Assembly: GCA_964507055.1 (NCBI GenBank)
Contig: CAZDOJ010000001.1
Coordinates: 13,210 to 77,209, forward strand
DNA: 64,000 bases
DNA from: an uncultured Gammaproteobacteria bacterium
GTDB lineage: Bacteria > Patescibacteriota > Microgenomatia > Levybacterales > UBA12049
Direction of reading: 5' to 3'
Shown here: positions 37,662 to 53,528 of the stretch, piece by piece
Layout: each line of letters opens with the position of its first letter
How positions within the stretch are numbered: the first letter of the stretch is position 1
Position numbers and translations under genes: made by a program
Notes under the pieces: generated by a model
What the model saw: the letters and a program-made list of their open reading frames with translations, nothing else
Told to the model about the DNA's origin: nothing
The model's database searches: none

Positions 37662-37666
37662 TATAA

Positions 37667-38845
37667 ATGAATACTCCAGAAAATCCACGATATAAAGGAC
37701 CTGATAGATCAGGGAAAGTTGAGAGAGCTCCCCATGTTGAAACACCATTTCAAGAAGCAGTGCGTTTGGCTACAGCACTACATCGTGCAGATCCGAATCG
37801 TATCTATCAAGGATTTGGGAGGTATGACGTATTTTCAGACACGCCTGGTGTTTCAGGTGTACATGAGGTGCATGTGGATCCTTTGGATGTAGATCAGAAA
37901 GGGACGCATGGGTTCGTCTTTCCTTTCGATGAAGAAGTTGAAGGAGAACAAGTTGTCGGATCTGTACGATTTTTTATCAAAGATGGGTTGATGCATGCTG
38001 ATCCTACAAAGATTTGGGAAGCAAATGCTATGCGTGCATTAGACGAGGAGTTCGGACCCGATCATGTGGATGAGTTGGGTTTTCCTGAGCAATCTGGTGC
38101 TTCAGAGAGGTTTGTTGCGGAATCTCAAGTCCTTGCATCTGTTCAAGCGGAATGGGAGAACCATTTTCAAACAGCCGCGAGTGCACTTGCCCTTGGCTCA
38201 GTTCGAGAAGTATTAAATCAGATAAAAGCCACGTATAGTGAATTGCTTCCAAAAGAATTAGGTTTTGATGATATAGATGTATCCGCTCTCGATTATGATA
38301 GCGTCATAGCTCATGTAGGTCTAGCAGCTGAACACCTTGTGATATCAACGATACATTATAGCGAATGGCACGATGGACAAAATACCTATAATCTTACAAC
38401 GGAAAAAGATAAAACTGGAGCAGTGACAGATATTAGCTTCAAACACGCACACCGAATGGCGGATGATATGGCGGTCACGCATACTATTCGTGATTGGACA
38501 TTTACTGCTGATGGAGAATATTGTGCTGGATCGTATCAACAATTAGCTCCTTTTGCGGAGTATCTTGAAGATCCTGCTCAACTCCAAATGGTTTCGGCTC
38601 ACAACAAAACGCAGATGGACGAGCGAATCCGAGAAGCAGATCTTGGTGAAGATATTGCTGACACGCTACAAATACAAGCAGGAATTGATTTGCTGAAAGA
38701 TCCAAAACATTTTAAAATTCTCCAACCAGTACTTAATAAAGGAGATGTACTTTTTCCCGAAGAAGAATCCTTAGATCAGCGGCATGAACAGATTGATTGG
38801 AGTGGAGAGGATGATCAAGATATTGGTCCACATAGATCGTTATAA
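37667..38845 (+). CDS. Tag-bearing island protein 9.
   Basis: It ends 'EQIDWSGEDDQDIGPHRSL'. The ATG lies only 5 nt after the upstream stop. Confidence 0.6.
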   Translation: MNTPENPRYKGPDRSGKVERAPHVETPFQEAVRLATALHRADPNRIYQGFGRYDVFSDTPGVSGVHEVHVDPLDVDQKGTHGFVFPFDEEVEGEQVVGSVRFFIKDGLMHADPTKIWEANAMRALDEEFGPDHVDELGFPEQSGASERFVAESQVLASVQAEWENHFQTAASALALGSVREVLNQIKATYSELLPKELGFDDIDVSALDYDSVIAHVGLAAEHLVISTIHYSEWHDGQNTYNLTTEKDKTGAVTDISFKHAHRMADDMAVTHTIRDWTFTADGEYCAGSYQQLAPFAEYLEDPAQLQMVSAHNKTQMDERIREADLGEDIADTLQIQAGIDLLKDPKHFKILQPVLNKGDVLFPEEESLDQRHEQIDWSGEDDQDIGPHRSL

Positions 38846-38846
38846 T

Positions 38847-39899
38847 ATGGTAGAAGCATACAGAAATAATAAGGAGCGTAATAAAAAACCTTTCACTATG
38901 GTACTTCTTGATCACGGTGCTGCTCGTCCTTCCGAAATAGCAGTTTGGAAAAATCATATTGTGACCCTTCTCAATAGAGATCCTTCTCATCATGGGAAAA
39001 TAGTAGTCTTCACAGAAAATGCTGCCGGCACAATCAGCAACGCTAATCGTGTGCAAAATAAAATTCGTAACGGGAAACTACCTACAAAAGCTTCCATTGA
39101 AGCAGGCCTTGAAGAGATTGCCGCAGCTGGAAGAATATTAAATGTTCCTGAAGCAGAAGCACACGCTATCGCACAAGAGGGACTTGAAGAAGGATTTGAT
39201 GGTGCAATTTTTCCCATACTTGATGATCTTCACCGGGAGCATGGAGAAAGAGTCGTTTGGATAGATGAAGCACATCCTTTATCAACGCATGAGAAAGGTA
39301 TAGCCTTCTTGGATACTGGATTTTTTATAGATCCTCCTTACGGGACGACTTCTCAATCCGAAATTGCTGATTGGTATCGTGAGAATTTTCGAAAAAACTC
39401 AGAATTTGATAGAGAGCGAGAAAATAATATAAGCCAAGCTTTGGCTGAACAGCTCGATGATCCCAATATTATTGGTGGCGTCGGGGTGATGGGATATTTC
39501 CATACCCGCGTTGTTCATAATTTGGCACGAAATGGCTATGCGGCTCGCAATGTTTTTCCAGAAAGAGAAGGAAGAAACTTTCACTTTAGTCCTAATACCT
39601 ATCTGCATAGAATGATTCATTTCTTTCCAGATCGTCAAATTACCGATGCAGATGTCCAAGATGCTTTAAGTGTAGGTCAATATACTGGGACTTTACTAAG
39701 AAGTGAAGGACGTGATCCTGCGACATTGAGTATTCAAGAAAGAAACAAAGTAGGCAATGAAATTTTGCATATCAGAGGGAAAGCACGTCAACGAGAGCTT
39801 CAGATATTTGATTCATCAGAAGCACTTGGAGATCATAATGATGAAATTGATTGGGCTGGGAATGATGAGCCTGATGAGGGACCTAAAAGGTCTCTTTAA
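38847..39899 (+). CDS. Tag-bearing island protein 10 (family A, 'VVFTENA'/'GWVGAxHTG' family).
   Basis: It ends 'DEIDWAGNDEPDEGPKRSL'. The start was set at the 'ATGGTAGAA' (MVEA...) conserved among family starts, 1 nt after the upstream stop (TAAtATG). The family motifs 'KKPFTMVLLDHG', 'GKIVVFTENAAG' and 'GGVGVMGYFHTRVVHNLARNGY' are present. Confidence 0.6.
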   Translation: MVEAYRNNKERNKKPFTMVLLDHGAARPSEIAVWKNHIVTLLNRDPSHHGKIVVFTENAAGTISNANRVQNKIRNGKLPTKASIEAGLEEIAAAGRILNVPEAEAHAIAQEGLEEGFDGAIFPILDDLHREHGERVVWIDEAHPLSTHEKGIAFLDTGFFIDPPYGTTSQSEIADWYRENFRKNSEFDRERENNISQALAEQLDDPNIIGGVGVMGYFHTRVVHNLARNGYAARNVFPEREGRNFHFSPNTYLHRMIHFFPDRQITDADVQDALSVGQYTGTLLRSEGRDPATLSIQERNKVGNEILHIRGKARQRELQIFDSSEALGDHNDEIDWAGNDEPDEGPKRSL

Positions 39900-39960
39900 T
39901 GGCCTATAATAGTTTTATTTTTAATCATTTCATGGTATAATCCCAAAAGACAAGCCATCC

Positions 39961-41019
39961 TTGTCCCATTTTTTTATGAATAATATTGAAGGTGCTCCCA
40001 AGAAAAGAGTAGAACATCGTGAGGTGGATCCACGAAAAAAACCTATTGATCTTTTCTTTTTACCTCATCATGAGGATATGTATCACGTGCTTGATCCATG
40101 GGAAGAAAAAATACGTAATACACTCGCAGAAAAACCTACCGGCAAACTTGTTGTTTTTACAGAACTAGCAACTGGACGAAGAGATATGAGCGATCGTGTA
40201 CGTGGGCTTGTATCCAATGGTGTTTCTCCCAGTGACGCATATGCACAAGCAATAATATCACGGTTGCGTGAAGCTGGAGATGACGGTACAGATAGTGAAC
40301 TTGAAAATATTGCGTTACGAAGTCTCTCTGGATTTGTAGGAGAATCATCCATGAGACTTGACGGAATTGTCCGTGATTTTCCTGGAAGGATAGACTGGAT
40401 AATTGAAGGTCGTCGCGATGATCAAGAATTACCTGAAGATGACGAAGATGTAAAGGCTGCGTACACATTTCTGACGACAAGAGTTGATGGAGTTCCTAGT
40501 GACGACCATATTGATATTTATCGAGAATCACTTGCAACAATTTCCCATAGCGATCGTGTGCGGGATCGGTATATCGCGGAGCAAATTGCAGAGACACTTG
40601 AAAATCCTGATACTATTGGTGTTGCTGGGTGGGTGGGCACCAAACACACAGCAATCAGTCATAAATTAAAAGCAGACGGCTATACAATTAATCGAACATT
40701 TCCACAGTTAGAGGATGGAGTATTGGTATTTGCACCGATAACAACTCTTATACGAGAAGCCGAGTATCATCCAAGGAGAGAAATTCCCAAAGAAGATATT
40801 ATCGTGACAACCGCTCTTGCCAACCCAGTTTTTGATTTCGATCCGAATGCATCCGATCAGCAATTTTTTAAGAATGCACATACATGGATGACAGAGAAAA
40901 AAGCAGAACTCACGTTACAAGAAGAGCTTGGCAGTGATCAACCATTATCAGAAATTGATCCGTCCGTTAACTGGGATGGGACAGAGGATCCTGATTCCGG
41001 TCCACGTCAGAGCCTTTAA
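39961..41019 (+). CDS. Tag-bearing island protein 11 (family A).
   Basis: It ends 'PSVNWDGTEDPDSGPRQSL'. It has 'RKKPIDLFFLPHH', 'GKLVVFTELA' and 'GVAGWVGTKHTAISHKLKADGY'. Confidence 0.65.
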   Translation: MSHFFMNNIEGAPKKRVEHREVDPRKKPIDLFFLPHHEDMYHVLDPWEEKIRNTLAEKPTGKLVVFTELATGRRDMSDRVRGLVSNGVSPSDAYAQAIISRLREAGDDGTDSELENIALRSLSGFVGESSMRLDGIVRDFPGRIDWIIEGRRDDQELPEDDEDVKAAYTFLTTRVDGVPSDDHIDIYRESLATISHSDRVRDRYIAEQIAETLENPDTIGVAGWVGTKHTAISHKLKADGYTINRTFPQLEDGVLVFAPITTLIREAEYHPRREIPKEDIIVTTALANPVFDFDPNASDQQFFKNAHTWMTEKKAELTLQEELGSDQPLSEIDPSVNWDGTEDPDSGPRQSL

Positions 41020-41054
41020 TTGCTTTTTGTGCCCAATTTGTTACAATACCGCCT

Positions 41055-42089
41055 ATGTCACACTTTGAAAGAGAACCTATAAAAAGAACAGAACGACTTG
41101 ATCCAAGGCAGAAGCCGACGACACTTTTTTTTATCAACCATAATGAGGCTGATCATACGCCACTTGTACCTTGGAAAAATCACCTTGAAAACCGTTTGCA
41201 GGACTTACCGAAAGGGAAAAAGATTGCGGTATTCACTGAAAGTGTTATCACAAGTACTGAAGTCGCTCAAGCCACGCAGGAACGAGTTGCCGATGGTATG
41301 AGTCCAACTGAAGCATATGTACATTCTGTATATGATCAATTGCTTCCAGGTATGCCACGCACTGACAAAACTCTGGAGCTTGTACATGATCATGTCCGAG
41401 CTCAGAATTCTTTTATAGCAGCATCTCGGGATATACTTGATGAATTAGCCCAACGCTATCCCGGAATCCATTGGATTGAAGAATCACATGATGCAACAGA
41501 GCGTGACCGTATCGTAGAGAGTGCAAAAGATTTTTTTACCATGCTTGATGTTCGAACTGATCCTCAAAGCCAAACATTGGATGAAAAAAAAGAGGTGATA
41601 GAGAATTTTGGAGCAAGGCAGCAGATGCGTGATCAAAGCATTGCAGGACTTATTACTGGAGCACTTGAAGAAGATGATGTTGTAGAAAGTATTGGTTGGG
41701 TTGGAGCGGATCATACAGGTATTTCTCATGCTTTAGTGCGAGATGGATATACAGCAAATAGAGTCTTCCCACATAGGCAAGGAGGGACCTTCTATTTTGA
41801 ACCATTAACTACATTGTGGAAAACGGCAAACATTCGAGAACTTACCGATGAAGAAGTAGAAGTATCACTTCAAGCAGACCGAAACCTCGCAGTTCCATTG
41901 AGTGTTGGAAGACAAGCTGATATTCAAGCCGCACATCGGATGATTAAAGTAGCAACCCAGCTGAGACAGCGAAGTAATCAAAGGCAAGAACCACCATCAA
42001 TAGATTCAAGTGAAACTTCTTTGCCTCAAACTGCTATTGACTGGGCTAGTGAAGAAGAAGGTCCCACAGAACCACGAAGAACTTTATAG
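41055..42089 (+). CDS. Tag-bearing island protein 12 (family A).
   Basis: It ends 'TAIDWASEEEGPTEPRRTL'. It has 'RQKPTTLFFINHN', 'KKIAVFTESV' and 'SIGWVGADHTGISHALVRDGY'. A 'TGTTACAAT' box lies 7 nt before the ATG. Confidence 0.65.
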   Translation: MSHFEREPIKRTERLDPRQKPTTLFFINHNEADHTPLVPWKNHLENRLQDLPKGKKIAVFTESVITSTEVAQATQERVADGMSPTEAYVHSVYDQLLPGMPRTDKTLELVHDHVRAQNSFIAASRDILDELAQRYPGIHWIEESHDATERDRIVESAKDFFTMLDVRTDPQSQTLDEKKEVIENFGARQQMRDQSIAGLITGALEEDDVVESIGWVGADHTGISHALVRDGYTANRVFPHRQGGTFYFEPLTTLWKTANIRELTDEEVEVSLQADRNLAVPLSVGRQADIQAAHRMIKVATQLRQRSNQRQEPPSIDSSETSLPQTAIDWASEEEGPTEPRRTL

Positions 42090-42116
42090 TCAAAATGAAT
42101 TTGGTATAATCCCCAC

Positions 42117-43289
42117 ATGGTAGAACATGTTGATTCCTCTCGAACCGGAAAAAAACCACGCAAACCTTTTACACAATTTCTTGTCTCTCATAGTGACGAT
42201 AAACTTGATCAGCTCTCTGGATGGGCTAATGCACTTCAGCGATCGCTTGAAGAAAATCCAGATAAGAAAGTTGTAGTTTTTACAGAAAATGCTAAGGGAG
42301 TTAAAGCAGATTCAGAAAAACTAACAGAAAAGGTTCTGGAAGGTATGCTGCCATCTGATGCATATGCTGCTGTAGCAACAGAAAATATGAGTTCATACTT
42401 TGCAAAGAATAGTACTCGTGTAGGTGTTACAAGACAACGTCGGATTATTAAAAAAGAGGCAGAAAAAGCTAGAGATCAGATTGGAGGAGGATTTTTTGGT
42501 AGATCATTTCAACTTCTTGATGCTATTGCAGCTGAATATCCGGGCAGAATAGTATTCATAAGTGAATGGGAACCAGAGCTCGCAAATCAATTAGATACAC
42601 AACAGAAAACTCGAGAATTAGGTATCGGTTTTCGAAGAGAATTGGGATTGCAGACTCGGGCTGAAAAAGCTGCTTCTGCACGAGAGTTCTTTCTATTCCA
42701 GGCAGATAATGCAAATGCCAGAGAAGAGTCTGCTGCACAAGTTCTGACGGATGCCTTAGACCGCGATGACGTTGCTGCAGGAGTTGGCTGGATGGGAGCC
42801 GCACATACTGGACTTGTACATCGATTGCAGGCAAATCATGATGTACGCATGATTATGCCAGGAAAGGTTGGAAGAGATTTTGTATATACGCCTGAGAATG
42901 CACTTATTCGTGAACGACTATTTCATCCGGATCGTGATATTGATTTGGATGAAGCATACGAGGCTGTACAGATAGAAAGAAGAGTAAGAAGACAGTATCC
43001 AATTTTCCATTTGGGGATTGTTTTAGAAAGTAAATGGGGTATAAATCCATTTCATAATAAGCAGAGAAAAGCTGAAATTGATCAAGAAATTAGTAGAAGA
43101 GCTCAGGTTGAATTCCAAGCTTTTCGAGCAGGCCGAAATGAGTATGCCCAAGATCAAAACACAATAGTAGCTCTTCCCAATGCATCAGCGATTGTACAAG
43201 ACAATGAAGTGTCACTAAGAGATATGAACTCTGGTCTTGATTGGGATGGTTCAGACGGTCCAGATCAAGATTATCGAAAAACATTGTAA
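42117..43289 (+). CDS. Tag-bearing island protein 13 (family A).
   Basis: It ends 'SGLDWDGSDGPDQDYRKTL'. It has 'KKPRKPFTQFLVSHSD', 'KKVVVFTENA' and 'GVGWMGAAHTGLVHRLQANHD'. A 'TGGTATAAT' box lies 6 nt before 'ATGGTAGAA'. Confidence 0.65.
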   Translation: MVEHVDSSRTGKKPRKPFTQFLVSHSDDKLDQLSGWANALQRSLEENPDKKVVVFTENAKGVKADSEKLTEKVLEGMLPSDAYAAVATENMSSYFAKNSTRVGVTRQRRIIKKEAEKARDQIGGGFFGRSFQLLDAIAAEYPGRIVFISEWEPELANQLDTQQKTRELGIGFRRELGLQTRAEKAASAREFFLFQADNANAREESAAQVLTDALDRDDVAAGVGWMGAAHTGLVHRLQANHDVRMIMPGKVGRDFVYTPENALIRERLFHPDRDIDLDEAYEAVQIERRVRRQYPIFHLGIVLESKWGINPFHNKQRKAEIDQEISRRAQVEFQAFRAGRNEYAQDQNTIVALPNASAIVQDNEVSLRDMNSGLDWDGSDGPDQDYRKTL

Positions 43290-43319
43290 TTATTATTTAA
43301 AAAGAATATAATCCCGTCA

Positions 43320-44513
43320 ATGACTGAACGATCTGCAAAATCACCTGCTCAGGTGGAAGGGGCCGTGGCTCCAGATGGCAAGAAAAAACCTGTTTCCCTT
43401 TTCTTTGTTTCGCATCATCCTGCACAAGGATACCAGCTCGACGGATGGAGAAGAAAGATAGAAGATATCCTTGATTCTACTCCAAAAGGAAAAGTTGTAG
43501 TTTTTACAGAGAATGCTGGGCAAAGCCATAGGCATTCCAATCTTACTCGACAAAATGTTGCTAATGGTGATCTACCATCAGATGCCGTTGAAAAAAGTTT
43601 CCGAGAACTAAATGATCATTATCGAAGTCATGGGGTTGAATGGGCCTTGAGTGATGAGAGAGTAGCAGAACTTCTTGAGAAAGGAACAAAAACATTTACT
43701 GGCATATCGACAGCTATACTTGATGATATTGCTGCTCGTTATCCTGGAAGAATAGATCTCGTTGAGGAATGGGAAAGTCGCAAAGGACATCAACTTGAAC
43801 ATGATCTCTACAAAAAGGATACTCCTCAGCGAAATACAACCCTAAGTGCTGTTATGTCTTTATTTCCTCAAGGACGTAGAATTTTGGCTGCTGAGGGTCG
43901 AGAAAAATTGGCATCCGAAGCTGCAATATACCGTGAACGTGAGGAAACATCTGCACGAATTATTAGTGATGCATTAGAACAACCCGATACTATTGCGGCG
44001 GTTGGCTGGATGGGTGCAATACATACTGGACTGAGCCATGAGCTCACTCGAGAGGGTCATCCAGTAATGCGTGTATTTCCAGAGCGAGTAGATGGAGAGC
44101 CATATCTTTTTCCGCCAGGACATACGCTCCTTCGTGCCAAGCGTTTTGATCCGGATAAAGAATTAACTGATGATGAGATCGTAACGGCTGAGCAGGCTGA
44201 TCTGAAGGGAATGCATAAACAATTTGGTGATCCACGGATCAATCCAATTGGTTTTTTTATGCGGTATAAGTCTCAAAAAGAAGAAGTACGCTCAGGAAAA
44301 GCACAGGCTTCTATTCGATATGCTCAAGAATGGTATAGACGAAAAATGGGCAAACAGGCATCAAATGAAGAGCAAGTAAGTACAAATAGACAACTTCAAG
44401 AATCAGTTACGGTTGCCCCAGATATAGCAGAGCCCCCACTTGGCGATCTGAATTCCGATATAGATTGGGGAGAGTCTGGACCCGATGCAAATGGACCAAA
44501 ACGGTCACTCTAA
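43320..44513 (+). CDS. Tag-bearing island protein 14 (family A).
   Basis: It ends 'SDIDWGESGPDANGPKRSL'. It has 'KKKPVSLFFVSHH', 'GKVVVFTENA' and 'AVGWMGAIHTGLSHELTREGH'. Confidence 0.65.
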   Translation: MTERSAKSPAQVEGAVAPDGKKKPVSLFFVSHHPAQGYQLDGWRRKIEDILDSTPKGKVVVFTENAGQSHRHSNLTRQNVANGDLPSDAVEKSFRELNDHYRSHGVEWALSDERVAELLEKGTKTFTGISTAILDDIAARYPGRIDLVEEWESRKGHQLEHDLYKKDTPQRNTTLSAVMSLFPQGRRILAAEGREKLASEAAIYREREETSARIISDALEQPDTIAAVGWMGAIHTGLSHELTREGHPVMRVFPERVDGEPYLFPPGHTLLRAKRFDPDKELTDDEIVTAEQADLKGMHKQFGDPRINPIGFFMRYKSQKEEVRSGKAQASIRYAQEWYRRKMGKQASNEEQVSTNRQLQESVTVAPDIAEPPLGDLNSDIDWGESGPDANGPKRSL

Positions 44514-44556
44514 GCCTGTAATAGTTAAATAGTATATTTTTTGTTATAATCCTTCG

Positions 44557-46401
44557 ATGGTAGAACAATCAAGAAGAATTGCACCACAGGGAAGTCGTAC
44601 TTTTCGTGGTACAGATGTGTCCGCAATGCATGCAGAAATGCAAGGTATCCTTACGGCTTCGAGAGATAATGATCCGCATGCCTCCACAATAGACTCATAT
44701 AGAAAGATTGCTGATGCACTTCCTCTACGGGTTCCAGCTGCTACATACCAAGCCGTTAGTGAATCTATCAATAATCCTGATCCCGTGATTTCAAAAGCTG
44801 GGAAGGAAGTTTTTACTTGGCTAAATATAAAGACTGTAATTTCAGTTGCAGAAAGATATTCGGGAGAAGGTTTGGGAGATGTTGAAGATTTCGCTCAGGA
44901 AGGGGTTACTATCCTTTATGAAAATGTAGACACAATTCATCAGAGGGCAGATAGTTCTATGTATACTTATCGTTTGGCTGAAGAGGCTCTGACTAATAGT
45001 ATTGCTCGTGAGCATGGATTTAGTGTTACTATGAGCGAAAATAGAGTTGCATTACCTATTGGTCAGACCGTGACTGAATTATTTGATAATGCTCCCTTAG
45101 GGGTTGATGAAGTAGGGCTTGAAAGGCAAGCAGTAGTATTAGCACAGAAATTTGGAATTACTGAAGATGCTGCATTTAAATATCTCTCAAGGAGGAGTGC
45201 ATTGCAGCCAATTCACGAAAGTAAGATGCAGCCAGAACGTGAGGATACAGAGGTAATAGAAGATATTATGGTTTTAGATGAGCTTCTGAGGATGCTTCCT
45301 GAAAGGAATGAACAAATGCTGCGGATGAGATTTGGGAATGGTTTTACACTAGATGAAATTGCCCAACGCTACAACCTGGTTCCTGAACGTGCTCGTCAAA
45401 TAATTGCTAAAACAATTAAATCATTACAGCATGAGCAAGTTATCGATTTTGTTACAGGGGGAGTTAAACCCGCATCTCGAAGTCAGCGAATAATGACATC
45501 AGATGGAGAAGAGGGGCAGGATATTGAAGATGTCATCCGCGAAAAGCGTTTGGCTGGATATGGTGAATCTGGATCAGGTTCGTGGGCTGAATCTAGAAAG
45601 GAATTGGCTAATATTGCACATGCATTCTTAGCTGAGCCGCAAATTGGGTATCCGGAAATTGCAAATAGGCTTGGAATTACAGTAGATAAAGTAATTTATA
45701 GTGTACAAACTCTTCGTTCAAAATATTTGTTACCAGATGCTAATGCAGGTAAGCATGCAAAAATAACTCCCGATGATGGCAACAGAACATTGCAGGAAAG
45801 ACTACATTCACGATATGAAAGACAAGAATCCGAGATTGTAGTTCCGCCAATTCAGGGGGAAAGAGAAACAAGTACTATCCCAGCAATTGAGGACACTTCT
45901 TCTAAATCGAAACCACCATCAGAAAGAACACTTCGTGCTTTAATTTTGCAAAAACAAGCGTGGAAGTTACAGCAAGAAGACGGAAAAACGTACGATGAGA
46001 TTTCTGAAATACTCAATGTTAGTCTAGGATCCATACGAAGATATCTTCAAAACGAACGGCGAGACCTTGGTCTTGCAAATCAGACGAATGTCGGACGTCC
46101 TAAAGATCCTGAGGTGCAAGCTAGAAGAGCCGTTTTGGCTGAGAGAATTAAAGCTGGTGAGCCTCTTAGAGTTCATGGATTTGCTAAAGAGTTTGGTACT
46201 ACTGTAGGTACTATAAATTTTGATATACGTGAAATTTTGAGTGGATATCATACTTCTTCATCAGAGACAACAATATTTTCTCAAGAAGAACATGCTTCGC
46301 AACAGCCTAAACTTGAGGAGCCAGAGGTTACGATCGCTGATGTAGCTGTCGATTGGGATGGTACCGATGATCCTGAAGCAGGTCCTCAACGAACTTTATA
46401 A
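44557..46401 (+). CDS. Tag-bearing island protein 15. It is a sigma-70-family-like protein (regions 2 and 4) with a roughly 330-aa C-terminal extension that contains an extra HTH.
   Basis: The region-2-like segment is 'ISVAERYSGEGLGDVEDFAQEGVTILYENVDTIH...SMYTYRLAEEALTNSIAR'. The region-4-like segment is 'LDELLRMLPERNEQMLRMRFGNGFTLDEIAQRYNLVPERARQIIAKTIKSL'. The extra HTH is 'KTYDEISEILNVSLGSIRRYL'. It ends 'VAVDWDGTDDPEAGPQRTL'. A 'TGTTATAAT' box lies 6 nt before 'ATGGTAGAA'. Confidence 0.65.
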   Translation: MVEQSRRIAPQGSRTFRGTDVSAMHAEMQGILTASRDNDPHASTIDSYRKIADALPLRVPAATYQAVSESINNPDPVISKAGKEVFTWLNIKTVISVAERYSGEGLGDVEDFAQEGVTILYENVDTIHQRADSSMYTYRLAEEALTNSIAREHGFSVTMSENRVALPIGQTVTELFDNAPLGVDEVGLERQAVVLAQKFGITEDAAFKYLSRRSALQPIHESKMQPEREDTEVIEDIMVLDELLRMLPERNEQMLRMRFGNGFTLDEIAQRYNLVPERARQIIAKTIKSLQHEQVIDFVTGGVKPASRSQRIMTSDGEEGQDIEDVIREKRLAGYGESGSGSWAESRKELANIAHAFLAEPQIGYPEIANRLGITVDKVIYSVQTLRSKYLLPDANAGKHAKITPDDGNRTLQERLHSRYERQESEIVVPPIQGERETSTIPAIEDTSSKSKPPSERTLRALILQKQAWKLQQEDGKTYDEISEILNVSLGSIRRYLQNERRDLGLANQTNVGRPKDPEVQARRAVLAERIKAGEPLRVHGFAKEFGTTVGTINFDIREILSGYHTSSSETTIFSQEEHASQQPKLEEPEVTIADVAVDWDGTDDPEAGPQRTL

Positions 46402-46442
46402 TTTATCTTTCCGCCTCATCCTATGGTATAATCTTGCCCAAT

Positions 46443-48695
46443 ATGATTGAACGGAGACCTCAAATGAAATCGGCAGTCTTTACCGGAGATGTTGATGGCA
46501 TTGATCCTTATGGTACATTGGCAGAATATGTAAAAGTTATTGATACTGTGGCTGCGATTCGCACTCCAGAAGATCGTATTCAGGCAAGACATGTATTACG
46601 TCGGATGATTATTGGATTTCCTCCTCACATTTCTCCCGCAGCTTTCATTAAAAATGAACATGCAGAGCTTGCTCTTACAGATGAAGAGCGAAGGATACAA
46701 GAACAAGATACAATTGATAGAAAAGCCAAACAAGAAGCAATTGATGCAGATATTGCTTCAGGTACATATCCTTGGCAAGCACATGCACGGCATAATGAAG
46801 AAAGCAGAGTCAATACACATCTCATTGGGTTTTACGGAGATGAAGCTTTACAACCACTCTATGGACCTCCTTATTTTGAATCAACTCACGGACAAAAAGA
46901 AGTCCATTTAATACATTTGGATATCAAGCCAGTTGAGGGAGAAGTGCGAAAGAGTGCACATTGGGATGCGTTACCAGAAGATCTTCGAGAACAGTTTGAG
47001 GGAGGATCAATCCCAATCACCGGAACGACTGACCTTTATGCATTAACAGATGAGGAATTAGACAACCTTGCAGTGTCCGAAGATCCATTCAAAATGCAAA
47101 AGCATATAAAAAAGAAACTTGCTCAAGCGGATGATGGATATTATGTTTTGTATTATAGTGATTTCCGCAATCCAGGAGGGAGAACTGGTGTCCTCATGCA
47201 ATCAAGGGATGGAGATATGCAACCTGTGACCACGAAAATTGGTGATGATGAATTTCTCATTGAAGCCAAATCGATAGGGACAAAATATGGTGGATTTGGA
47301 GGAAAGCATCGTCGTCAAAGTGGAAATGATGTCATTACGGGTGGGGGGACTGCTAGAGAATCCGTACGTGAAATTGAGCGCTTGGAAGAGACTGAATTTC
47401 ATGATGGTCCTCAACCAGTTGGTGCTATAACATTTCGCAACGAGGAAGGTGAAGATCAAGGTGTACTGCTTCGACTTACACCGTCAACTGTTCGTGCTGC
47501 TTTTACTATGCCAGATGCATATCCGAAAATTGATTCCCCTGATATTGCAAAGCGGGTTTTCGATATGTATACACAATTATTGGCTGATCAAACGCTTGGA
47601 GAAAATCCTTATATTATAGGTGCTCAATCTTCACATACGGAAAATATCCTCATTTGGAAAGATACGTATGGCTATACAGACTCAGCAGATAAAGCAGCTT
47701 TTCATGATGGTTCAGTGGTGAGTTATGAGAAGGACTTCAAGTTGCGTACGCCTAAAGAGTTTCTCATAGAATACATTGGGCTCGTAGGATATATTCCTGG
47801 AAGGAGCAAGGTAGAAAAACAATACTTTATTGATGGGCTTACTCGAGCTTTTGCCTCTCATGGCAAAAATATTGACCTCCATCCTGAAGATTATGATTTT
47901 GAGATTGCCGAAAAGCTTTGGGCAGAAGGGGGAATTGCATATTCTGTATTTAAGGCTAGAAGAGAACGAGGATTTGTGGCAGATGGAGTACTTAAAGATT
48001 TTACTGATTATGCTGCAAAGGTGAGAGATATATTTGGCGAAAAAGCAATGGGTTCTGAAGAATCATTTAAGCAGAGGATGGAAGATATGGTTGCAACTGT
48101 GAAGAAACAGCTTCTTGAGAAAAGAAATAAAACCAGTGACATTGACGCCCAAAGAGAAATCAATAGTATATTAGCAGAACTCGGAGGAAATAATTTTTTG
48201 AATGGAAGTAATGGATATGATCTCATTTCGAATACGTTTTCACAAAATCATGGAGAAACACAGGAAGATAATGAGCTTATTCAAAACGCTGAAGATATTA
48301 AGACGATACAACAGCTATTTTTCATACATGAATTATATTTCGATCATGAAAGTGATGTAGTATCTGGTGCGTTGAAAAGTTGCCCTGAAGAAGAACGTGA
48401 AAATGTTGAAGATGCAAAAGCGGAGGTTGGTCGAAAACTAGATGAAGCATTTATACTTCGCACGCCAGAAGGACTTTATCGAGCTCTAACAGATGCGGAA
48501 TATGTGCGAGAGTTGATAACAATGGAGGTATATTCACAAGGCTCAGAATTATCTACAGATATTGAAGCTCATCCCGAACAAGTGATCTTCGATCCACGAC
48601 AATATGGATCATCGACTGAGTTTTTTTTAGCTGATGCCCAGATAGACTGGGCTGGAATAGAAGATCCTGATCCTGGATCACAACGAACGCTTTAG
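46443..48695 (+). CDS. Tag-bearing island protein 16 (753-aa hypothetical).
   Basis: It ends 'AQIDWAGIEDPDPGSQRTL'. The ORF track starts at an upstream TTG, so the ATG at 46443 was chosen, 10 nt after 'TGGTATAAT'. Confidence 0.6.
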   Translation: MIERRPQMKSAVFTGDVDGIDPYGTLAEYVKVIDTVAAIRTPEDRIQARHVLRRMIIGFPPHISPAAFIKNEHAELALTDEERRIQEQDTIDRKAKQEAIDADIASGTYPWQAHARHNEESRVNTHLIGFYGDEALQPLYGPPYFESTHGQKEVHLIHLDIKPVEGEVRKSAHWDALPEDLREQFEGGSIPITGTTDLYALTDEELDNLAVSEDPFKMQKHIKKKLAQADDGYYVLYYSDFRNPGGRTGVLMQSRDGDMQPVTTKIGDDEFLIEAKSIGTKYGGFGGKHRRQSGNDVITGGGTARESVREIERLEETEFHDGPQPVGAITFRNEEGEDQGVLLRLTPSTVRAAFTMPDAYPKIDSPDIAKRVFDMYTQLLADQTLGENPYIIGAQSSHTENILIWKDTYGYTDSADKAAFHDGSVVSYEKDFKLRTPKEFLIEYIGLVGYIPGRSKVEKQYFIDGLTRAFASHGKNIDLHPEDYDFEIAEKLWAEGGIAYSVFKARRERGFVADGVLKDFTDYAAKVRDIFGEKAMGSEESFKQRMEDMVATVKKQLLEKRNKTSDIDAQREINSILAELGGNNFLNGSNGYDLISNTFSQNHGETQEDNELIQNAEDIKTIQQLFFIHELYFDHESDVVSGALKSCPEEERENVEDAKAEVGRKLDEAFILRTPEGLYRALTDAEYVRELITMEVYSQGSELSTDIEAHPEQVIFDPRQYGSSTEFFLADAQIDWAGIEDPDPGSQRTL

Positions 48696-48707
48696 AAATG
48701 TCAGGTT
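48691..48707 (+). repeat. Conserved intergenic element 'TTTAGAAATGTCAGGTT' that overlaps the stop codon.
   Basis: It recurs nearly identically at 50764-50780, and a related 'CTAGAATGTCAGGTAG' lies at about 28974-28989. It always sits directly after a tag-encoding 3' end and about 30 nt before the next -10 box. Confidence 0.5.
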
Positions 48708-48722
48708 TGTTGAGCTAAATTT

Positions 48723-48731
48723 TGCTATAAT
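48723..48731 (+). promoter_or_regulatory. Extended -10 'TGCTATAAT', 6 nt upstream of the ATG at 48738 (leaderless arrangement).
   Basis: It is representative of the island's promoters. The same arrangement occurs at 42102-42110, 44542-44550, 50796-50804 and 53562-53570 (TGnTATAAT-N6-ATG). Coordinates are approximate to +/-1 nt. Confidence 0.5.
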
Positions 48732-48737
48732 CCCCGA

Positions 48738-50768
48738 ATGAAAGAACTACTCAGAGCGAGAAAATCATTTTTGAGAGGAGAACCCCTCCGTCATAATCCT
48801 GGTGATGATGATCGGACCCAGGATAAATTTGCTAACGTACCACATGGTGGTCCCCAAAAAGAAGGAAGATTACCAGGAGAAAGAATTAGTGATCAACAGC
48901 GTGATGAGGTGCTATCCGGAGTTCTCAATAGTGAAGTAAAGATGCTCGTTTTGGCGGGAATGGTTCTGGACCCTGAAGTATACACTGCTGGAGATCTCGA
49001 TAGTATGATACGGGATATGCAACGTGGACAAAAAGGTTGGAATTTAAGTAGCAACATAGCATTCGGGTACTGTCTCAATTCTTTCGATGGGATTGGACTA
49101 GTCGCAAAAAGTGAACCTGTAAACGATCGGACGACCTTGGGATTTAAAGCAACACAAAGAGGCAAAGACACGTTACCAGTTATTGGACATCTCTTGGATT
49201 TCTCACTGAAACATCCAGATATAGCTTTGCGGCGTGTCTTTTCAACAACTGCTTCTCCTTCAAAGGCCACGGCTGAAGGCGAACAAGCTGGAGACTATAA
49301 AGTCCGTGCTCCCAAAAGACGATTTCGTATTCTTAAAGCACTCGTCGAGAACGAGGGGCCACTACGTGAGTCAGATATGCGAAAGCTTGTAAATAATTCA
49401 TCTGTTGAGTTGCATCTGGAAAGCCTTCATAACATTGGGCTTATAACTTATGAGAACACAAGAGTTGGTGCAGATCATATCACCTATACAGTTATTCCAG
49501 ATGCTATCTCTGATGTTCATGCTCTGCCTTCTATTCCAACGTCAACCGATAACCAGCTGCAATTACGTGCAGCATATATTACCTCAAAACTTTCGGGTGA
49601 AATTTCTCCAAAAGATGTATATGAACGATTAGTCGCTTTATTCCCACAATATAAAGAACGGGATCCTCGTGGTACAGAAAAGGTAATAAATAGAAAGCTC
49701 CATCACATGTCAATGCATGGATTTATAGAAAAAGGGAAACGCACAATAGACCGAAAAACAGATATCTCAGTAACTGAAGAACAGCGAGAAACTATAGCTG
49801 AGATCGTGGGAATTATTGATGCATTTCAGGCAGGAGATCCGACATTCTTAGCAGAAGGAGAACAGAAAGCTCGACGAATTATCCAAAATCCTGAGGCAGC
49901 AGCTACTCTTATGCGTAAGGCTCAGGAAAGTTCGCATACAGCTCTTGCTCTTGGTCAAGCAGAATTGAAGAGAAGATTAGTGACTTTTGCTGAACAAAGC
50001 GAAGGTCCGATAACAAGTGTGCTTGCTGCTGAATATCTGGAGCATCGTGTGGGTAAAAGTTATGCTGGTGCGATATTACGAGAACTTGCAAGAGAAGGAA
50101 AGATACAGGTTGAATCACGGGGTCAAGTTATAAGATATGGTCCTGTCGCTCCGCAGGAACAAGAGATCCCTTTGCCTGAAGATAAGCGAGGTTTAGAACA
50201 AGTTGCAGTTACGGTAAATGCGGAGATTAAGCCATTTGCTGATGGTATCAAGTTGCTTCTTGCTGCATATGCTTCACATACCGATCCTCAGTCAGAATCA
50301 GCTCTTGAAGTAATGGATCAAATTCGTTCTGTACGAGCACTGCCTGAATATGCACATCTCATTTCGAAACGTGATCAGATAGAACAACGGCTTGCTGTTA
50401 TTGCATCAGAAGAGGCTGGTATCGAGTTAGCGAATGAAGAACCCGTTGTAGAAACAGAAGTTGAGATGCAAGAAAATACGGAGGTTGTTCTGAAACCCCA
50501 AAATAGTCCAAAATCGAAGACAGTTGAGCTTCGTGAGCGAATTCAAGCCTTTAAGGATTTAGGAGTATCTGATTCTAGCGAAATTGCACAATGGATGGGT
50601 GTAAGTAGATCTACCATCACAAGACATATTCGGCAGATGCAAGCACAAGAAACACAAGAAGAACCCATACTTCCTGCAGTTGAAGATCAGCCATTAAGTG
50701 CATTAGATGCTGGGATTGATTGGAGTGGAGATGATGATCCTGATCCCGGTTTACAAAGAACACTTTAG
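48738..50768 (+). CDS. Tag-bearing island protein 17 (family C). It is a DNA-binding-like protein with a winged-helix-like segment and a C-terminal HTH.
   Basis: It ends 'AGIDWSGDDDPDPGLQRTL'. The N-terminal roughly 130 aa are paralogous to protein 18 ('...VLNSEVKMLVLAGMVLDPEVYTAGDL...GYCLNSFDGIGLVAKSE'). It has 'RRFRILKALVENEGPLRESDMRKLV' and the HTH 'SEIAQWMGVSRSTITRHIRQM'. Confidence 0.65.
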   Translation: MKELLRARKSFLRGEPLRHNPGDDDRTQDKFANVPHGGPQKEGRLPGERISDQQRDEVLSGVLNSEVKMLVLAGMVLDPEVYTAGDLDSMIRDMQRGQKGWNLSSNIAFGYCLNSFDGIGLVAKSEPVNDRTTLGFKATQRGKDTLPVIGHLLDFSLKHPDIALRRVFSTTASPSKATAEGEQAGDYKVRAPKRRFRILKALVENEGPLRESDMRKLVNNSSVELHLESLHNIGLITYENTRVGADHITYTVIPDAISDVHALPSIPTSTDNQLQLRAAYITSKLSGEISPKDVYERLVALFPQYKERDPRGTEKVINRKLHHMSMHGFIEKGKRTIDRKTDISVTEEQRETIAEIVGIIDAFQAGDPTFLAEGEQKARRIIQNPEAAATLMRKAQESSHTALALGQAELKRRLVTFAEQSEGPITSVLAAEYLEHRVGKSYAGAILRELAREGKIQVESRGQVIRYGPVAPQEQEIPLPEDKRGLEQVAVTVNAEIKPFADGIKLLLAAYASHTDPQSESALEVMDQIRSVRALPEYAHLISKRDQIEQRLAVIASEEAGIELANEEPVVETEVEMQENTEVVLKPQNSPKSKTVELRERIQAFKDLGVSDSSEIAQWMGVSRSTITRHIRQMQAQETQEEPILPAVEDQPLSALDAGIDWSGDDDPDPGLQRTL

Positions 50769-50810
50769 AAATGTCAGGTTCACTACAATGAAGTTTGTTA
50801 TAATCCCCAA

Positions 50811-53528
50811 ATGAAAGAACGATTTCGAGAAAGACGTATACAAAGGGAGGTTTTACGACATCATCCTGATCCGGGCGAACAGGATAAATTTTCGCAAGGT
50901 GGAGCACATCCTGAAGTTCCTGGTGAACGGAGAGAAAGAGTATCGACACAGAAGATTGATGAACTCCTGGCAGGAGTGTTTAATAATGAATCCAAGATGA
51001 TTGTCCTTGGTGGGATGATCCTCAATCCTCACTGGTATTCAGATCAGCAGCTTCATGATATGACAATGCGGATGCAACGAGGAGAGCGAGGATGGGGCAT
51101 TGGAAATCACATTCCCTTTGGTTACTGTCAGGATTCTTTTGATGATATCGGACTTGTTGCAAAAAATGAAATCGATGGGGCTCGCGATAGTTTAAAATAT
51201 CATGTGACCCAAGATGGTATTAGTGCACTTCCTGCTATTGGTCATCTACTTTCGTTTGTTGAAGAATCAGGCATCTCTTTGCATAGAACTTTCTCAACAA
51301 CGAGTACTCCTTCTTCAGCAGCGAGTATTGATTCTGAGGAAGAACATAATGATGATCGTGACATACGAAAACGTGCACCAAAGACAAGGTATAGAATTTT
51401 TAAACAATTACTTGCTCATGAAGGACCAATACAAAAAGTTGATTTACAAGAAAATCTCAACGTGAATGGGAGTTCTCTCGGGCACCATTTAAGAAACCTC
51501 AGTATTGAAGGTATGCTTGACTATCAAAGCTATTATGATGGTGAACCACTCGCTGTTACATATCGCATCAATGCAGATGCTTTTCAAAAGATAAACTATG
51601 ATGATCTTCCACGAGATGCAAGATCAACGATTACAACGATTACGAGACGAGTTGCTTTTATTGCTGCTCATATGGAAGGGACTGTTACTCCTGCTAAAGT
51701 GCATGAAAAATTGCTTGCTCTGTATCCTCAATATGCAGAGAGAACTGAGGGTCATGTTCGAAGCAGCGTGAATCGTGCCTTAACGCATCTTGCAAAACAT
51801 GAGTATCTACAGCGAGGAGAGATCTCTGCAGATCGTCCTTCATTAATCTCTTTAACTGATGAGCAGCGAGAAAGAATGCAACAACTTGTAACGATCATCG
51901 ATACATTCCAATCAGGTGATCCCGAATTCTTAGCACAAGGTGAGCAAAAAGCCCGCGAAATTTTAAATGATCCTCAAAGAGTAGCACGATTAATGAGACA
52001 CGCACAAGAAAATTCTAGAATAGCATTAGCTTTGGGGCCTGCGGAGTTAAAACAGATGATCATCGAAATCATTAAAGATAGTGACACACCATTATCCGGA
52101 GCGAGAATTGTGCCGTTGATGGACCATCGGATTGGACAGCCGTATGCAACAGCTTTATTAAAGCAATTATATGATGGTGGTGAAATAGCCTTGGTAAGTG
52201 AAGGAAGATCAAAATGGTATGGAAAACTTCAAGAAACAGGAGGTGTTGACGCATTACCCGAAGATAGAGATGGGTTAAGATCATCACTGCAACAAGTTAC
52301 TGCTGAATTTCAGCCATACGAAAATGGCCTGGGGCTTTTATTTGCTGCTTTAGACACGCATGATCCAGCGTCAGCAGATGCCCGAGAGGTTTTAAATCAG
52401 ATTGAATATGTCCGCATGGATCCTGAATATCGAAGACTTAAAGGTAGAATCGACACTATACAAGATAGGCTGGAGAGTTTCGCTGATGAAATTGAAGATG
52501 AAGCAGTTGCGGACGAAACTCAGGTTAGAAAAAGAACACCACGCCAAAGTTCGGTCGTCATTCGCCAACGGATAGATGCTTTTAGGGATTTAGGGATTAC
52601 CAATCAAAGCGAAATTGCACGTTGGATGGGCTTCTCTCCTGATAGTTTGAAATATCATTTCCAGTCGATGGACGATACGCTTAATAGAGCAATATCTCCT
52701 GAGCGAATGGCAAAAATTGATATATCCAGAGCATTGCGTGATCAGGATCAATTAACTCCCGCACAAATTGCAGAACGGATGGGTACCACTGAGAGTACAG
52801 CTCGTGCATATCTCGAACTTGCAGATGATGCTGAAAGGCTTGCAAATCAACGCGAAGTAACTTCTCCTTATCAAGATCGCCTTGTTAGAGTCCGCGAAAT
52901 GGAAGAAGAGTGGGGTGACATGATGCAAGTTACACCGATGGTTCATCAAATGGCTGCGGAGTTAGGCCTATCTGTTGCATCGATCCATAATTATCGAAGA
53001 GAACTTTTTGCGACACGTGCTCGAGCAGCAAGAGTACGGGAAGGCCAAATAGAACAGGTCCGAGCGATGACTGAAGAGTTACAGCAGCTTCCTAACCAAG
53101 AACGTGTATTAGTGATTGCTGAAAGACTAGGATTAAATCGATCAACTGTATATCGCTTTCAAGATAAAGCATTTGGAGTTGCAGAGCAAAGAAAAGTAGG
53201 AATTGCTGAGCGACGTGCACGGGTTGCCCAGCGTTCAGAAGAGCTTCGTGCAATGGGAATCCCTATAAAAGAAGCTGCAAAAGTTATTGCTGAAGAAGAA
53301 GGTGTCTCTCCTGGGACGATAATGTTGGACAGAAGAGCTTTATTACAATCACAGCGAGAAGCCACACAAGCAGAAAATCTATCATCTTCTGTAGAAGAAA
53401 CCATTGTTTATGAGGCAGATCATAGCTTGCCTGATCTTTCGTCAGAGCAATCATTAAATACCTTCAATGAAACAATTGACTGGTCTGGTGAAGATGATCC
53501 GGATATTGGACAACACAGGACACTTTAG
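50811..53528 (+). CDS. Tag-bearing island protein 18 (family C). It is a 905-aa protein with five tandem HTH-like repeats.
   Basis: It ends 'ETIDWSGEDDPDIGQHRTL'. The repeated HTHs are 'SEIARWMGFSPDSLKYHFQSM', 'QIAERMGTTESTARAYLELA', 'QMAAELGLSVASIHNYRREL', 'VIAERLGLNRSTVYRFQDKA' and 'KVIAEEEGVSPGTIMLDRRAL'. Confidence 0.65.
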   Translation: MKERFRERRIQREVLRHHPDPGEQDKFSQGGAHPEVPGERRERVSTQKIDELLAGVFNNESKMIVLGGMILNPHWYSDQQLHDMTMRMQRGERGWGIGNHIPFGYCQDSFDDIGLVAKNEIDGARDSLKYHVTQDGISALPAIGHLLSFVEESGISLHRTFSTTSTPSSAASIDSEEEHNDDRDIRKRAPKTRYRIFKQLLAHEGPIQKVDLQENLNVNGSSLGHHLRNLSIEGMLDYQSYYDGEPLAVTYRINADAFQKINYDDLPRDARSTITTITRRVAFIAAHMEGTVTPAKVHEKLLALYPQYAERTEGHVRSSVNRALTHLAKHEYLQRGEISADRPSLISLTDEQRERMQQLVTIIDTFQSGDPEFLAQGEQKAREILNDPQRVARLMRHAQENSRIALALGPAELKQMIIEIIKDSDTPLSGARIVPLMDHRIGQPYATALLKQLYDGGEIALVSEGRSKWYGKLQETGGVDALPEDRDGLRSSLQQVTAEFQPYENGLGLLFAALDTHDPASADAREVLNQIEYVRMDPEYRRLKGRIDTIQDRLESFADEIEDEAVADETQVRKRTPRQSSVVIRQRIDAFRDLGITNQSEIARWMGFSPDSLKYHFQSMDDTLNRAISPERMAKIDISRALRDQDQLTPAQIAERMGTTESTARAYLELADDAERLANQREVTSPYQDRLVRVREMEEEWGDMMQVTPMVHQMAAELGLSVASIHNYRRELFATRARAARVREGQIEQVRAMTEELQQLPNQERVLVIAERLGLNRSTVYRFQDKAFGVAEQRKVGIAERRARVAQRSEELRAMGIPIKEAAKVIAEEEGVSPGTIMLDRRALLQSQREATQAENLSSSVEETIVYEADHSLPDLSSEQSLNTFNETIDWSGEDDPDIGQHRTL

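Follow-up and report, generated by a model that had tools for sequence, protein, structure and literature searches.

A tagged sigma-70-like protein encoded in a gene island linked to a VirD4/TraG-type coupling ATPase

The island and its sigma-like gene

The stretch of 64,000 nucleotides analysed here (the window; positions 13,210 to 77,209 of contig CAZDOJ010000001.1, assembly GCA_964507055.1) contains a gene island in which a long co-oriented array encodes unrelated proteins that end in the same short C-terminal tag, and which also holds the gene of a VirD4/TraG-type coupling ATPase (a type IV coupling protein, T4CP). The subject of this report is one member of the array, P0001, a soluble and acidic protein of 614 aa that combines a sigma-70-family module with three helix-turn-helix (HTH) modules, a disordered tail and the tag. 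The tag is conserved at the level of the peptide, the tagged proteins are devoid of Sec signals and transmembrane (TM) segments, and their genes are physically linked to that of the ATPase. Proteins of the same type are also encoded in the tagged arrays of two other lineages, which use different tags and one of which lies beside a coupling ATPase. Identical copies of P0001 were found on eight public contigs (NCBI and Logan), the longest of which spans 1.32 Mb.

Table 1. Features of the sigma-like gene and of the surrounding island (positions in the window)
Feature	Positions	Strand	Remarks
Open reading frame (ORF) of the tagged sigma-like protein P0001	44557..46401	+	ATG start, 614 aa
Extended -10 promoter TGTTATAAT	44542..44550	+	followed by CCTTCG and ATG; 6 nt before ATG; read from intergenic 44514..44556
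N-terminal helices including a region-1.2-like segment (IDSYRKIADALPLRVP...)	44614..44796	+	aa 20-80; phmmer PDB alignment from aa 37
Sigma region 2	44803..45015	+	aa 83-153; Pfam Sigma70_r2, TIGR02937
Sigma-3-like three-helix domain	45034..45204	+	aa 160-216; aligned to RpoD region 3 (phmmer)
Sigma region 4 (LPERNEQMLRMRFG...VPERARQIIAKTIKSLQ)	45274..45441	+	aa 240-295; Pfam Sigma70_r4; PDB sigma-4 chains matched individually
HTH-like module 2, low to moderate confidence	45583..45726	+	aa 343-390
HTH module 3, sigma-4-like	45922..46083	+	aa 456-509; Sigma70_r4_2 best at aa 467-503; HTH_24, HTH_23
HTH module 4	46108..46251	+	aa 518-565; pLDDT >93; common to tagged paralogues 48738..50768 and 50811..53528
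Disordered tail with tag	46324..46398	+	aa 590-614; core VDWDGTDDPEAGPQRTL at 46348..46398
Co-oriented array of 20 tagged genes	24938..57275	+	includes small ORF 33347..33679 and degenerate-tag gene 56079..57275
Tag remnant with in-frame stop	29042..29095	+	in the 157-bp gap 28979..29135
Small tagged ORF, 110 aa	33347..33679	+	slightly degenerate tag (..IFDGSNDGQSGPRRSL); own TATAAT 6 nt upstream; unlisted
Tagged gene, 505 aa, variant tag VDFAGEDEPDQDLPKTL	57280..58797	-	directly downstream of the coupling ATPase gene, 1-nt gap
VirD4/TraG-type coupling ATPase (T4CP), 1250 aa, untagged	58799..62551	-	Pfam
Further tagged gene, 527 aa, ends GIDWAGENDPDTGPRRTL	62698..64000	+	runs off the window; start verified

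Sigma-70 family membership and domain architecture

The sequence-only reading had recognised sigma-70 regions 2 and 4 in strings that fall at residues 111-151 and 249-290 of P0001, and the matches to hidden Markov models (HMMs) are located at the same places and uphold the assignment. Sigma70_r4 (PF04545) covered residues 244-292 with 59.2 bits against a gathering score of 24.1, and the NCBIfam sigma-70 superfamily model TIGR02937 ran end to end over residues 92-292 (85.5 bits; cut-off, 42.9), while Sigma70_r2 (PF04542) reached 21.2 bits (E 2.5e-4) over residues 92-152 and stayed below its gathering score of 24.0. Regions 1.2 and 3, which that reading had left to be checked, may be present according to alignment and model but not according to Pfam: the Pfam scan gave no r1_2 match and no r3 match at the sigma-3 position, yet phmmer against PDB sequences aligned residues 37-293 to RpoD regions 1.2-4.2 (E 3e-12), and a three-helix domain occupies residues 165-215 (helices H165-178, H185-199 and H203-215, each with a predicted local distance difference test score, pLDDT, above 90 in AlphaFold2).

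The AlphaFold2 model was built on an alignment of relatives collected by an exhaustive HMMER search and has pLDDT >90 across most of residues 21-220, 250-290 and 520-560. A Foldseek search of the PDB gave sigma factors for all of the 40 best matches, which have 240-350 aligned columns and nearly all come from complexes with RNA polymerase (RNAP); the fold matches sigma-2 of SigA and is SigA/RpoD-like overall. In the family alignment, the segment of residues 20-80 is common to the divergent family to which P0001 belongs, and its pLDDT exceeds 90. Beyond region 4, the earlier description of a further ~330 aa with another HTH holds as regards the extra HTH content but understates it, as three modules can be delimited. 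Module 2 is the least certain, with weak Pfam HTH matches at residues 360-389 and helices H343-359, H365-372 and H376-390 at pLDDT 50-70. Residues 482-614 are similar to residues 769-905 of the tagged protein encoded at 50811 (BLASTP, E 1.5e-8). Residues 565-614, tag included, are mostly modelled with pLDDT <55, and the linkers are likewise disordered.

Residues were mapped onto E. coli sigma-70 by the phmmer PDB alignment and the established numbering of that protein. The principal surface for core binding, region 2.1/2.2, is well conserved (NIKTVISVAERY versus NLRLVISIAKKY), with Q406-E407-G408 identical. Region 4.1/4.2 is also well conserved: it retains LRMRFG, E585, R586, R588 and Q589 are identical, R584 is replaced by P, and of the five residues that contact the -35 element four are retained in the alignment to sigma70. 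Region 2.3/2.4, on the other hand, has diverged (Y425S, F427M, W433 deleted, W434L, R436E, Q437E and R441N in E. coli numbering), and among the -10-reading and melting residues Y425, Y430, W433, W434, Q437 and T440 only Y430 and T440 remain. P0001 may therefore plausibly bind core RNAP and -35-like DNA but without a canonical -10 melting apparatus. The loss is not proof of a dead sigma factor, because the whole divergent family, including its members in housekeeping contexts, lacks these residues in the family alignment. The sigma-derived fold may also have been co-opted for another role, as had been suggested, in view of the missing group-1 promoter-melting residues of region 2.3/2.4.

A word-indexed search with P0001 returned identical proteins and weak RpoD matches (25-29% identity over 33-38% of its length), its PHROG matches are generic sigma families, and no relative was found in a viral contig collection. 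The MZA defence sigma factor MzaA was considered and rejected, as the match was confined to the region-4 segment (56.9 bits against a cut-off of 800; PADLOC, 38.5 bits); PADLOC gave no match for the neighbours of the P0001 gene.

The C-terminal tag

The tag follows the consensus [IV]-D-W-x-G-x2-[DE]-x3-G-P-x-[RK]-[ST]-L-COOH. As the sequence-only reading had noticed, P0001 carries a conserved tag, and this tag is common to 21 ORFs of the window: 19 plus-strand genes within 24938-56027, gene 56079..57275, in which it is degenerate, and the minus-strand gene 57280..58797, in which W is changed to F. When the C-termini of all window ORFs were printed, it was absent from all 24 housekeeping ORFs left of the array. 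Five more tagged genes (527, 372, 883, 213 and 889 aa) lie beyond the ATPase on contig L018, which overlaps the end of the window; the first of them starts at window position 62698, and the total comes to at least 26 tagged genes.

In the window, nine matches to a degenerate DNA pattern written for the tag in its most frequent register compare with an expected 0.00, so that chance can hardly account for the tag. The terminal Leu is encoded by five different codons, and only 46% of identical tag residues share a codon; this spread over synonymous codons points to selection on the peptide, not to a DNA repeat. In all-against-all BLASTP comparisons, similarity between tagged families was limited to the last 20-45 residues. 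The tagged proteins span 110-997 aa and, with one exception, are acidic. They lack signal peptides and hydrophobic segments, apart from a weak 20-aa stretch in the protein encoded at 33755. A protein search with a 45-aa tag alignment yielded 12 word-sharing candidates, none at E<=10, the alignment being too short for significance in 5.8 billion sequences. No description of the tag, of the arrays or of a translocated sigma-like protein was found in the searchable literature.

The proposal of an anti-sigma or degron function for the tag is not favoured, as the same tag is present on ~25 unrelated proteins, among them an FAD oxidoreductase; an export-coupled regulatory role of the tag is possible. 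Three other readings of the tag were set aside. Substrates of type VII secretion carry WXG in the helical hairpin of a ~100-aa protein and are exported by FtsK/SpoIIIE-type ATPases (EssC/EccC); here W-x-G is part of the disordered tail in proteins that range from 110 to 997 aa, and the linked ATPase matches T4CP models, with no FtsK_SpoIIIE match reported (Pfam). The C-terminal R-[ST]-L stands in the wrong register for the consensus motifs of both peroxisomal targeting signal 1 and PDZ ligands. An encapsulin-type cargo peptide was dropped, no shell gene having been recognised. A tag remnant with an in-frame stop (DWRGI*DEGPSGNHRTL*, asterisks marking stops) appears to derive from the end of a tagged gene that has since decayed.

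The coupling ATPase

The ATPase is encoded within the island and is the product of its only untagged gene with a recognisable function. The protein matched PF02534 with 101.8 bits, TraG-D_C (PF12696) with 39 bits and the all-alpha domain TrwB_AAD_bind (PF10412) with 35 bits, and its Walker A motif GPTGQGKS lies at residue 692, behind an N-terminal region of ~650 aa without recognisable homology. A word-indexed search at E<=1e-10 returned identical proteins only.

T4CPs are ancestrally conjugation proteins, the best plasmid matches of this one are IncP-type TraG proteins (24% identity), and the co-transfer of proteins during conjugation is known. The island might accordingly be a conjugative or mobilisable element, or part of one, whose tagged proteins travel with the DNA and help the element to become established in a new host cell, where its sigma factor takes over transcription. 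This is very unlikely, however, in view of the gene content: neither a relaxase nor an integrase nor a replication gene could be recognised in ~47 kb of island. The G+C content of the island (0.39-0.43) is at most marginally above that of the flanking housekeeping part (0.38-0.41), with mostly similar sign of the GC skew. The viral collection held no relatives, and the plasmid search was run with the T4CP only. Relaxases are, moreover, rare in Patescibacteria (PMC12102498).

Relatives and tagged arrays in other lineages

The exhaustive HMMER search, which covered 1.84 billion representatives, revealed a divergent family of 33 clusters at E<1e-10 that match P0001 from residue ~15-20 to 293, the N-terminal helices included. 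Mean identity within the family is 27%, and that of P0001 to the family averages 23%. The majority of its members stand alone and are 310-470 aa long, and some are fused behind a ~480-aa helicase domain: in P0030, P0032, P0034, P0037, P0045, P0051 and P0052 the sigma module follows an N-terminal SNF2/DEAD-like helicase, from residue ~310-700. To our knowledge, this helicase-sigma architecture has not been described. One stand-alone member is encoded beside recR, cysS, gnd and zwf in the metagenome-assembled genome GCA_030647365.1, and another follows glyA-rpsB-tsf-rseP-frr-recR in a Candidatus Levybacteria contig (L026). The order in L026 resembles the glyA-rpsB-tsf-frr-rseP order of the window (10206..18122), a hint that the cargo sigma may be of endogenous origin and that the organism may be affiliated with the candidate phyla radiation (CPR). 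Taken together with the 1.32-Mb contig and the surface proteins described below, this resemblance suggests a CPR/Patescibacteria-like organism.

The closest relative, P0028 from a different metagenome (670 aa, 105 bits, 27% identity), has the same sigma and multi-HTH build. Its locus, L021, begins with a 1879-aa coupling ATPase (1..838, minus strand) and continues with a co-oriented array, in which all 14 complete genes end in a bipartite tag consisting of [DS]-[IV]-[FY]-x-[RK]-Y-G-[IVL], 15-25 residues and E-[IV]-[DE]-E-COOH; P0028 itself ends in ...TDVFVRYGVEPVHQPEQDMQKSADVPEIEE. Besides P0028, the L021 array includes four genes with weak or faint matches to sigma-70 regions and two multi-HTH proteins. 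A third tag, [DE]-F-x-Y-D followed by 25-35 residues and [DE]-x-[DE]-COOH, closes five of the seven genes on the short contig L022, among them that of P0035 (553 aa, sigma and HTH).

Four cargo families are common to the window island and L021 in BLASTP comparisons, namely the sigma-like protein, two paralogue families described below as A and C, and the 505-aa minus-strand gene, whose homologue lies at 18734-20170 in L021. The sharing of four families indicates that this type of island is ancestral and partly syntenic, and that the tags changed as a set. A label that co-evolves with one receptor would be expected to be replaced as a set in each lineage, as the tags are. The coupling ATPase is the sole conserved and untagged product that could be such a receptor, and its visible N-terminal regions are unrelated in sequence between the two lineages. 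Both ATPases are giant (1250 aa in the window, 1879 aa in L021), and the visible 279-aa N-terminus of the L021 protein looks hydrophilic by eye, judged without a hydropathy scan. Judged from these comparisons, the sigma-like multi-HTH protein would be a recurrent, conserved client and the tag a lineage-specific address label.

Expression signals and a possible endogenous role

Most island genes share the layout seen before the P0001 gene, with TGnTATAAT and a C-rich spacer of 6-9 nt directly before ATG, and no Shine-Dalgarno sequence was found before the island genes arranged in this way. One extended -10 promoter per island gene and leaderless mRNAs are predicted from this layout, which also precedes several housekeeping genes of the window (10206, 16938 and 22831) and recurs in L021 and L022. 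The organism must therefore have a sigma factor that reads canonical -10 elements, and the island, with its ordinary TGnTATAAT promoters, does not seem to need a sigma factor of its own.

These promoters bear on two readings in which P0001 works in the cell that makes it. That it is the genome's housekeeping sigma factor, rpoD, is hardly credible: RpoD and SigA are its best named matches, yet identity to RpoD is 23-29% over ~38% of its length, without r1 Pfam matches, and the residues that read and melt the -10 element are absent from P0001 in a genome whose promoters are canonical. It also has ~320 extra residues with three HTH modules and a cargo tag, and its gene lies in a tagged island, not in the housekeeping neighbourhoods of the stand-alone family members. 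Such indirect evidence also speaks against its being the only sigma-70 of the genome, the case that the sequence-only reading had named as making it rpoD. More plausible, although still unlikely, is an alternative sigma or transcription factor that acts on the producer RNAP and whose level is set by tag-dependent export or sequestration, as for FlgM and ExsE. Such a role would suit the intact core-binding regions 2.1/2.2 and region 4, the export-type tag and the existence of relatives in housekeeping contexts, which are presumably ordinary sigma factors. It is harder to reconcile with the canonical promoters of the island genes, including that of P0001, which provide no island-specific motif for a dedicated sigma factor, and with a tag whose presence on ~25 unrelated proteins shows that it is not a sigma-specific handle. 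In addition, this status as tagged cargo has been conserved in two more lineages, where other multi-HTH proteins are cargo too. As to the cognate anti-sigma factor for which the sequence-only reading had proposed a search, Pfam scans of the window proteins revealed no anti-sigma-like neighbour.

Several features of the gene boundaries were observed in addition. A semi-conserved CCTGTAGTAG / ATGTCAGGT motif occurs right after stop codons, ~20-30 nt upstream of the next -10 element (44514, 53529, 36298, 48696 and 50769; on L018 upstream of 9854), and could provide back-up stops, stand in for a terminator or have a regulatory function. The mechanical ORF starts at 46434, 38784, 39961, 24938 and 35098 are probably too far upstream; for the first of these, ATG 46443 is supported by promoter position and a public gene call, and for the other four, internal M-x-E starts (MVEAYRNN, MNNIEG, MEKDR and MRQERE) fit the island pattern better. 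Island proteins, the untagged ATPase included, begin with M-x-E followed by a stretch rich in R, K or P (for example MVEQSRR, MVEQRGP, MVEHVDSSR, MTERSAK, MKERFRERR and MAAERPIGRPG), which the housekeeping proteins lack. Examples are encoded at 44557, 53577, 42117, 33347, 43320, 27053, 56079, 48738, 50811 and 62551 (the ATPase), and others in L021 and L022; the genes at 44557 and 53577 begin with the same 12 nt, ATGGTAGAACAA. An N-terminus of this type also occurs in some stand-alone sigma-like relatives (P0042 and P0044) and could be a feature of leaderless translation or a second signal.

Other genes of the island and its surroundings

BLASTP grouped many of the tagged proteins into paralogue families: A (38784, 39961, 41055, 42117, 43320 and the N-terminus of 53577), B (32171, 33755, 36348 and 37667) and C (48738 and 50811). 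Pfam matches were obtained for four tagged proteins only, the FAD/NAD oxidoreductase encoded at 27053, the sigma-like protein and the HTH-rich proteins of family C. The two family C paralogues (48738..53528) are 40% identical and share a conserved region of ~600 aa with ArsR-, MarR-, IclR- and TetR-like HTH or winged HTH domains; their orthologue in L021 (12016..13602) directly follows the sigma-like gene, which makes DNA-binding clients a conserved theme. The six paralogues of family A (38784..44513 and 53577..54560) have invariant H32, E64 (VFTE), H235-T236 and H240 (GWMGxxHTxxSH). The best PDB match of their AlphaFold model (predicted template modelling score 0.64) was a weak one to ChaN (E 0.15, probability 0.80), with erythromycin esterase ranking lower, a hint that family A may possibly consist of Tiki/ChaN/EreA-like hydrolases. 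PDB sequence searches with families C and A gave nothing significant. The small ORF 33347..33679 is probably a real tagged gene.

No rRNA, tRNA or Rfam match was obtained in the window. At 582..4812 and 11594..13407, both on the minus strand, surface-type proteins with VWA, SdrD-B-like and Hint domains are encoded, and the products of 1381..3600 and 3604..4812 end in dockerin-like tails (DxNxDGxVNxxDYNLF). These may be the adhesion proteins of an epibiont.

A possible route of export and its weighing

Patescibacteria depend on a type IV secretion system (T4SS) for epibiotic growth, with unknown substrates, and possess numerous T4CP genes that are mostly unlinked to virB4; the secretion signal and the role of the many orphan coupling ATPases are likewise unknown (PMC12102498, PMC12857230). 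Against this background, the tag may be the address label by which the island coupling ATPase recognises its clients, which would then be handed to an export channel encoded elsewhere and delivered to a partner or host cell. In the recipient, the sigma-like client would use its core-binding regions 2.1/2.2, region 4 and four HTH units to occupy or redirect RNAP and/or promoters. The sequence-only reading had already considered a delivered factor in an effector array. The T4CP gene amid the array, the lack of Sec signals and the tagged arrays elsewhere strengthen that idea considerably; for delivery itself, as for recognition of the tag by the ATPase, the recipient and the effect on transcription, we infer a possible course from these features. 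The proposal also fits T4SS logic, because VirD4-type proteins read unstructured C-terminal signals. Taken as a whole, with the tag as recognition signal of the ATPase, export of the tagged proteins and an effector that acts on recipient RNAP or DNA, it is favoured tentatively and at somewhat less than an even chance.

Several observations weigh against export. No TM segment was found in the ATPase, whose best 19-aa Kyte-Doolittle window scores 1.34 (the Walker A strand) and lies below 1.6; the ATPase thus lacks the defining N-terminal anchor of canonical T4CPs and may have been exapted for a role outside secretion. No VirB4, VirB6 or VirB8 channel gene was found in the window or in ~10 kb beyond its right end. 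No T4SS signal described so far is like the tag, and a DNA probe for it gave no true match in any other genome or metagenome probed: the 15 single matches in the GTDB species genomes, whose representatives do not include the source genome, proved spurious (out of frame, or at an internal HMGL-like motif that ends in TGG, a Trp codon), as did the one match in JGI metagenomes, inside a parA gene. Furthermore, the stand-alone relatives in housekeeping neighbourhoods look like ordinary endogenous sigma factors, so that P0001 could act in its own cell. Patescibacterial T4CPs may, finally, have been exapted, and one that was tested proved not essential (PMC12102498).

The soluble ATPase with its large unique N-terminal region, the absence of channel genes nearby and the exaptation raised in that study would also suit an assembly without secretion. 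The tag would then be a docking or loading signal around an exapted T4CP-like ATPase, for instance in an intracellular remodelling or sorting complex or for loading into vesicles or another compartment, and the sigma-like client would act in cis. Short C-terminal cargo-loading peptides exist elsewhere, as in encapsulins. Such an assembly is nevertheless rather improbable, as neither the window island nor L021 has a recognised gene for a shell, protease or chaperone, and the ATPase also matches, in Pfam, the T4CP-specific TraG-D_C and all-alpha domains, which in secretion systems serve to recognise substrates. The client set, with its DNA-binding proteins, paralogue expansions and rapid divergence, also looks like an effector repertoire.

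If export through the coupling ATPase is the correct explanation, the tagged proteins would be the first candidate substrates, and the tag the first secretion signal, of a Patescibacteria-type T4SS, and the effector repertoires of uncultivated bacteria could be found by a simple rule based on tags of this kind. Bolder, and doubtful, is the full scenario in which a probably epibiotic or parasitic bacterium resembling those of the CPR injects a tagged repertoire of ~26 proteins by way of the VirD4-type ATPase, with the sigma-like member capturing or blocking host RNAP. Were it true, it would represent a transcriptional take-over between bacteria at the protein level. Delivery of the sigma-like client would make this the first bacterium found to inject a sigma-type protein into another, and a new control of host transcription. 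With its sharply defined C-terminal tag, client list and linked ATPase, the locus is a testable candidate for the substrates, the secretion signal and the role of an orphan coupling ATPase alike.

Comparison with known systems

P0001 appears to share with group 1-3 sigma-70 factors (RpoD/SigA, RpoS, SigB/F) the order and fold of region 1.2, sigma-2, sigma-3 and sigma-4, and it has the region 2.1/2.2 motif N-[IL]-[KR]-x-V-I-S-[IV]-A-x-[KR]-Y ... Q-E-G and the region 4.1/4.2 motif L-R-M-R-F-G ... E-R-x-R-Q-I. It differs from them by a C-terminal extension of 320 aa (the three HTH modules and the cargo tag) and belongs to the small divergent family described above, not to RpoD proper.

Phage factors that take over or appropriate the host polymerase, such as T4 gp55/AsiA and SPO1 gp28, offer a likeness in that a foreign sigma-type protein engages the core RNAP of the host, whose transcription is thereby redirected or shut down; those factors, however, are expressed from injected DNA and are not delivered as protein. 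FlgM and ExsE are secretion-coupled anti-sigma and anti-activator regulators exported by type III systems, and resemble P0001 as transcription regulators that bear the export signal of the machine whose activity they report, whereas the tagged P0001 is a sigma-like factor itself and one among ~26 tagged proteins. A precedent for an inter-bacterial T4SS effector aimed at the sigma/RNAP machinery of the recipient is LtaE of Lysobacter enzymogenes, which is injected into Pseudomonas and blocks the assembly of PvdS and LuxR1 with RNAP (PMC11253431). LtaE is not a sigma homologue, while the putative effector P0001 is itself sigma-like and DNA-binding.

The island tags can also be compared with the signals of T4SS substrates, namely the Arg-rich tails of Agrobacterium VirE2/VirF, the E-block of Legionella Dot/Icm substrates, the XVIPCD of Xanthomonas X-Tfe proteins and the BID domain plus tail of Bartonella effectors. 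The likeness lies in an unstructured C-terminal signal on unrelated Sec-less proteins, with an acidic stretch and both basic and hydrophobic end residues, and in the clustering of the genes with that of a VirD4-type ATPase. The island tags differ in their much sharper, short and lineage-specific consensus and in their bipartite build, in which an aromatic motif (DWxG, F.RYG or F.YD) is followed 10-35 residues on by a fixed C-terminus. The setting differs as well, with an ATPase devoid of a membrane anchor, no channel genes nearby and a monoderm, CPR-like context, and is known from sequence alone. Among known systems, the P0001 locus would best be placed with T4CP clients that carry C-terminal signals, within which its sharp lineage-specific tag and its sigma-like multi-HTH client would be unusual.

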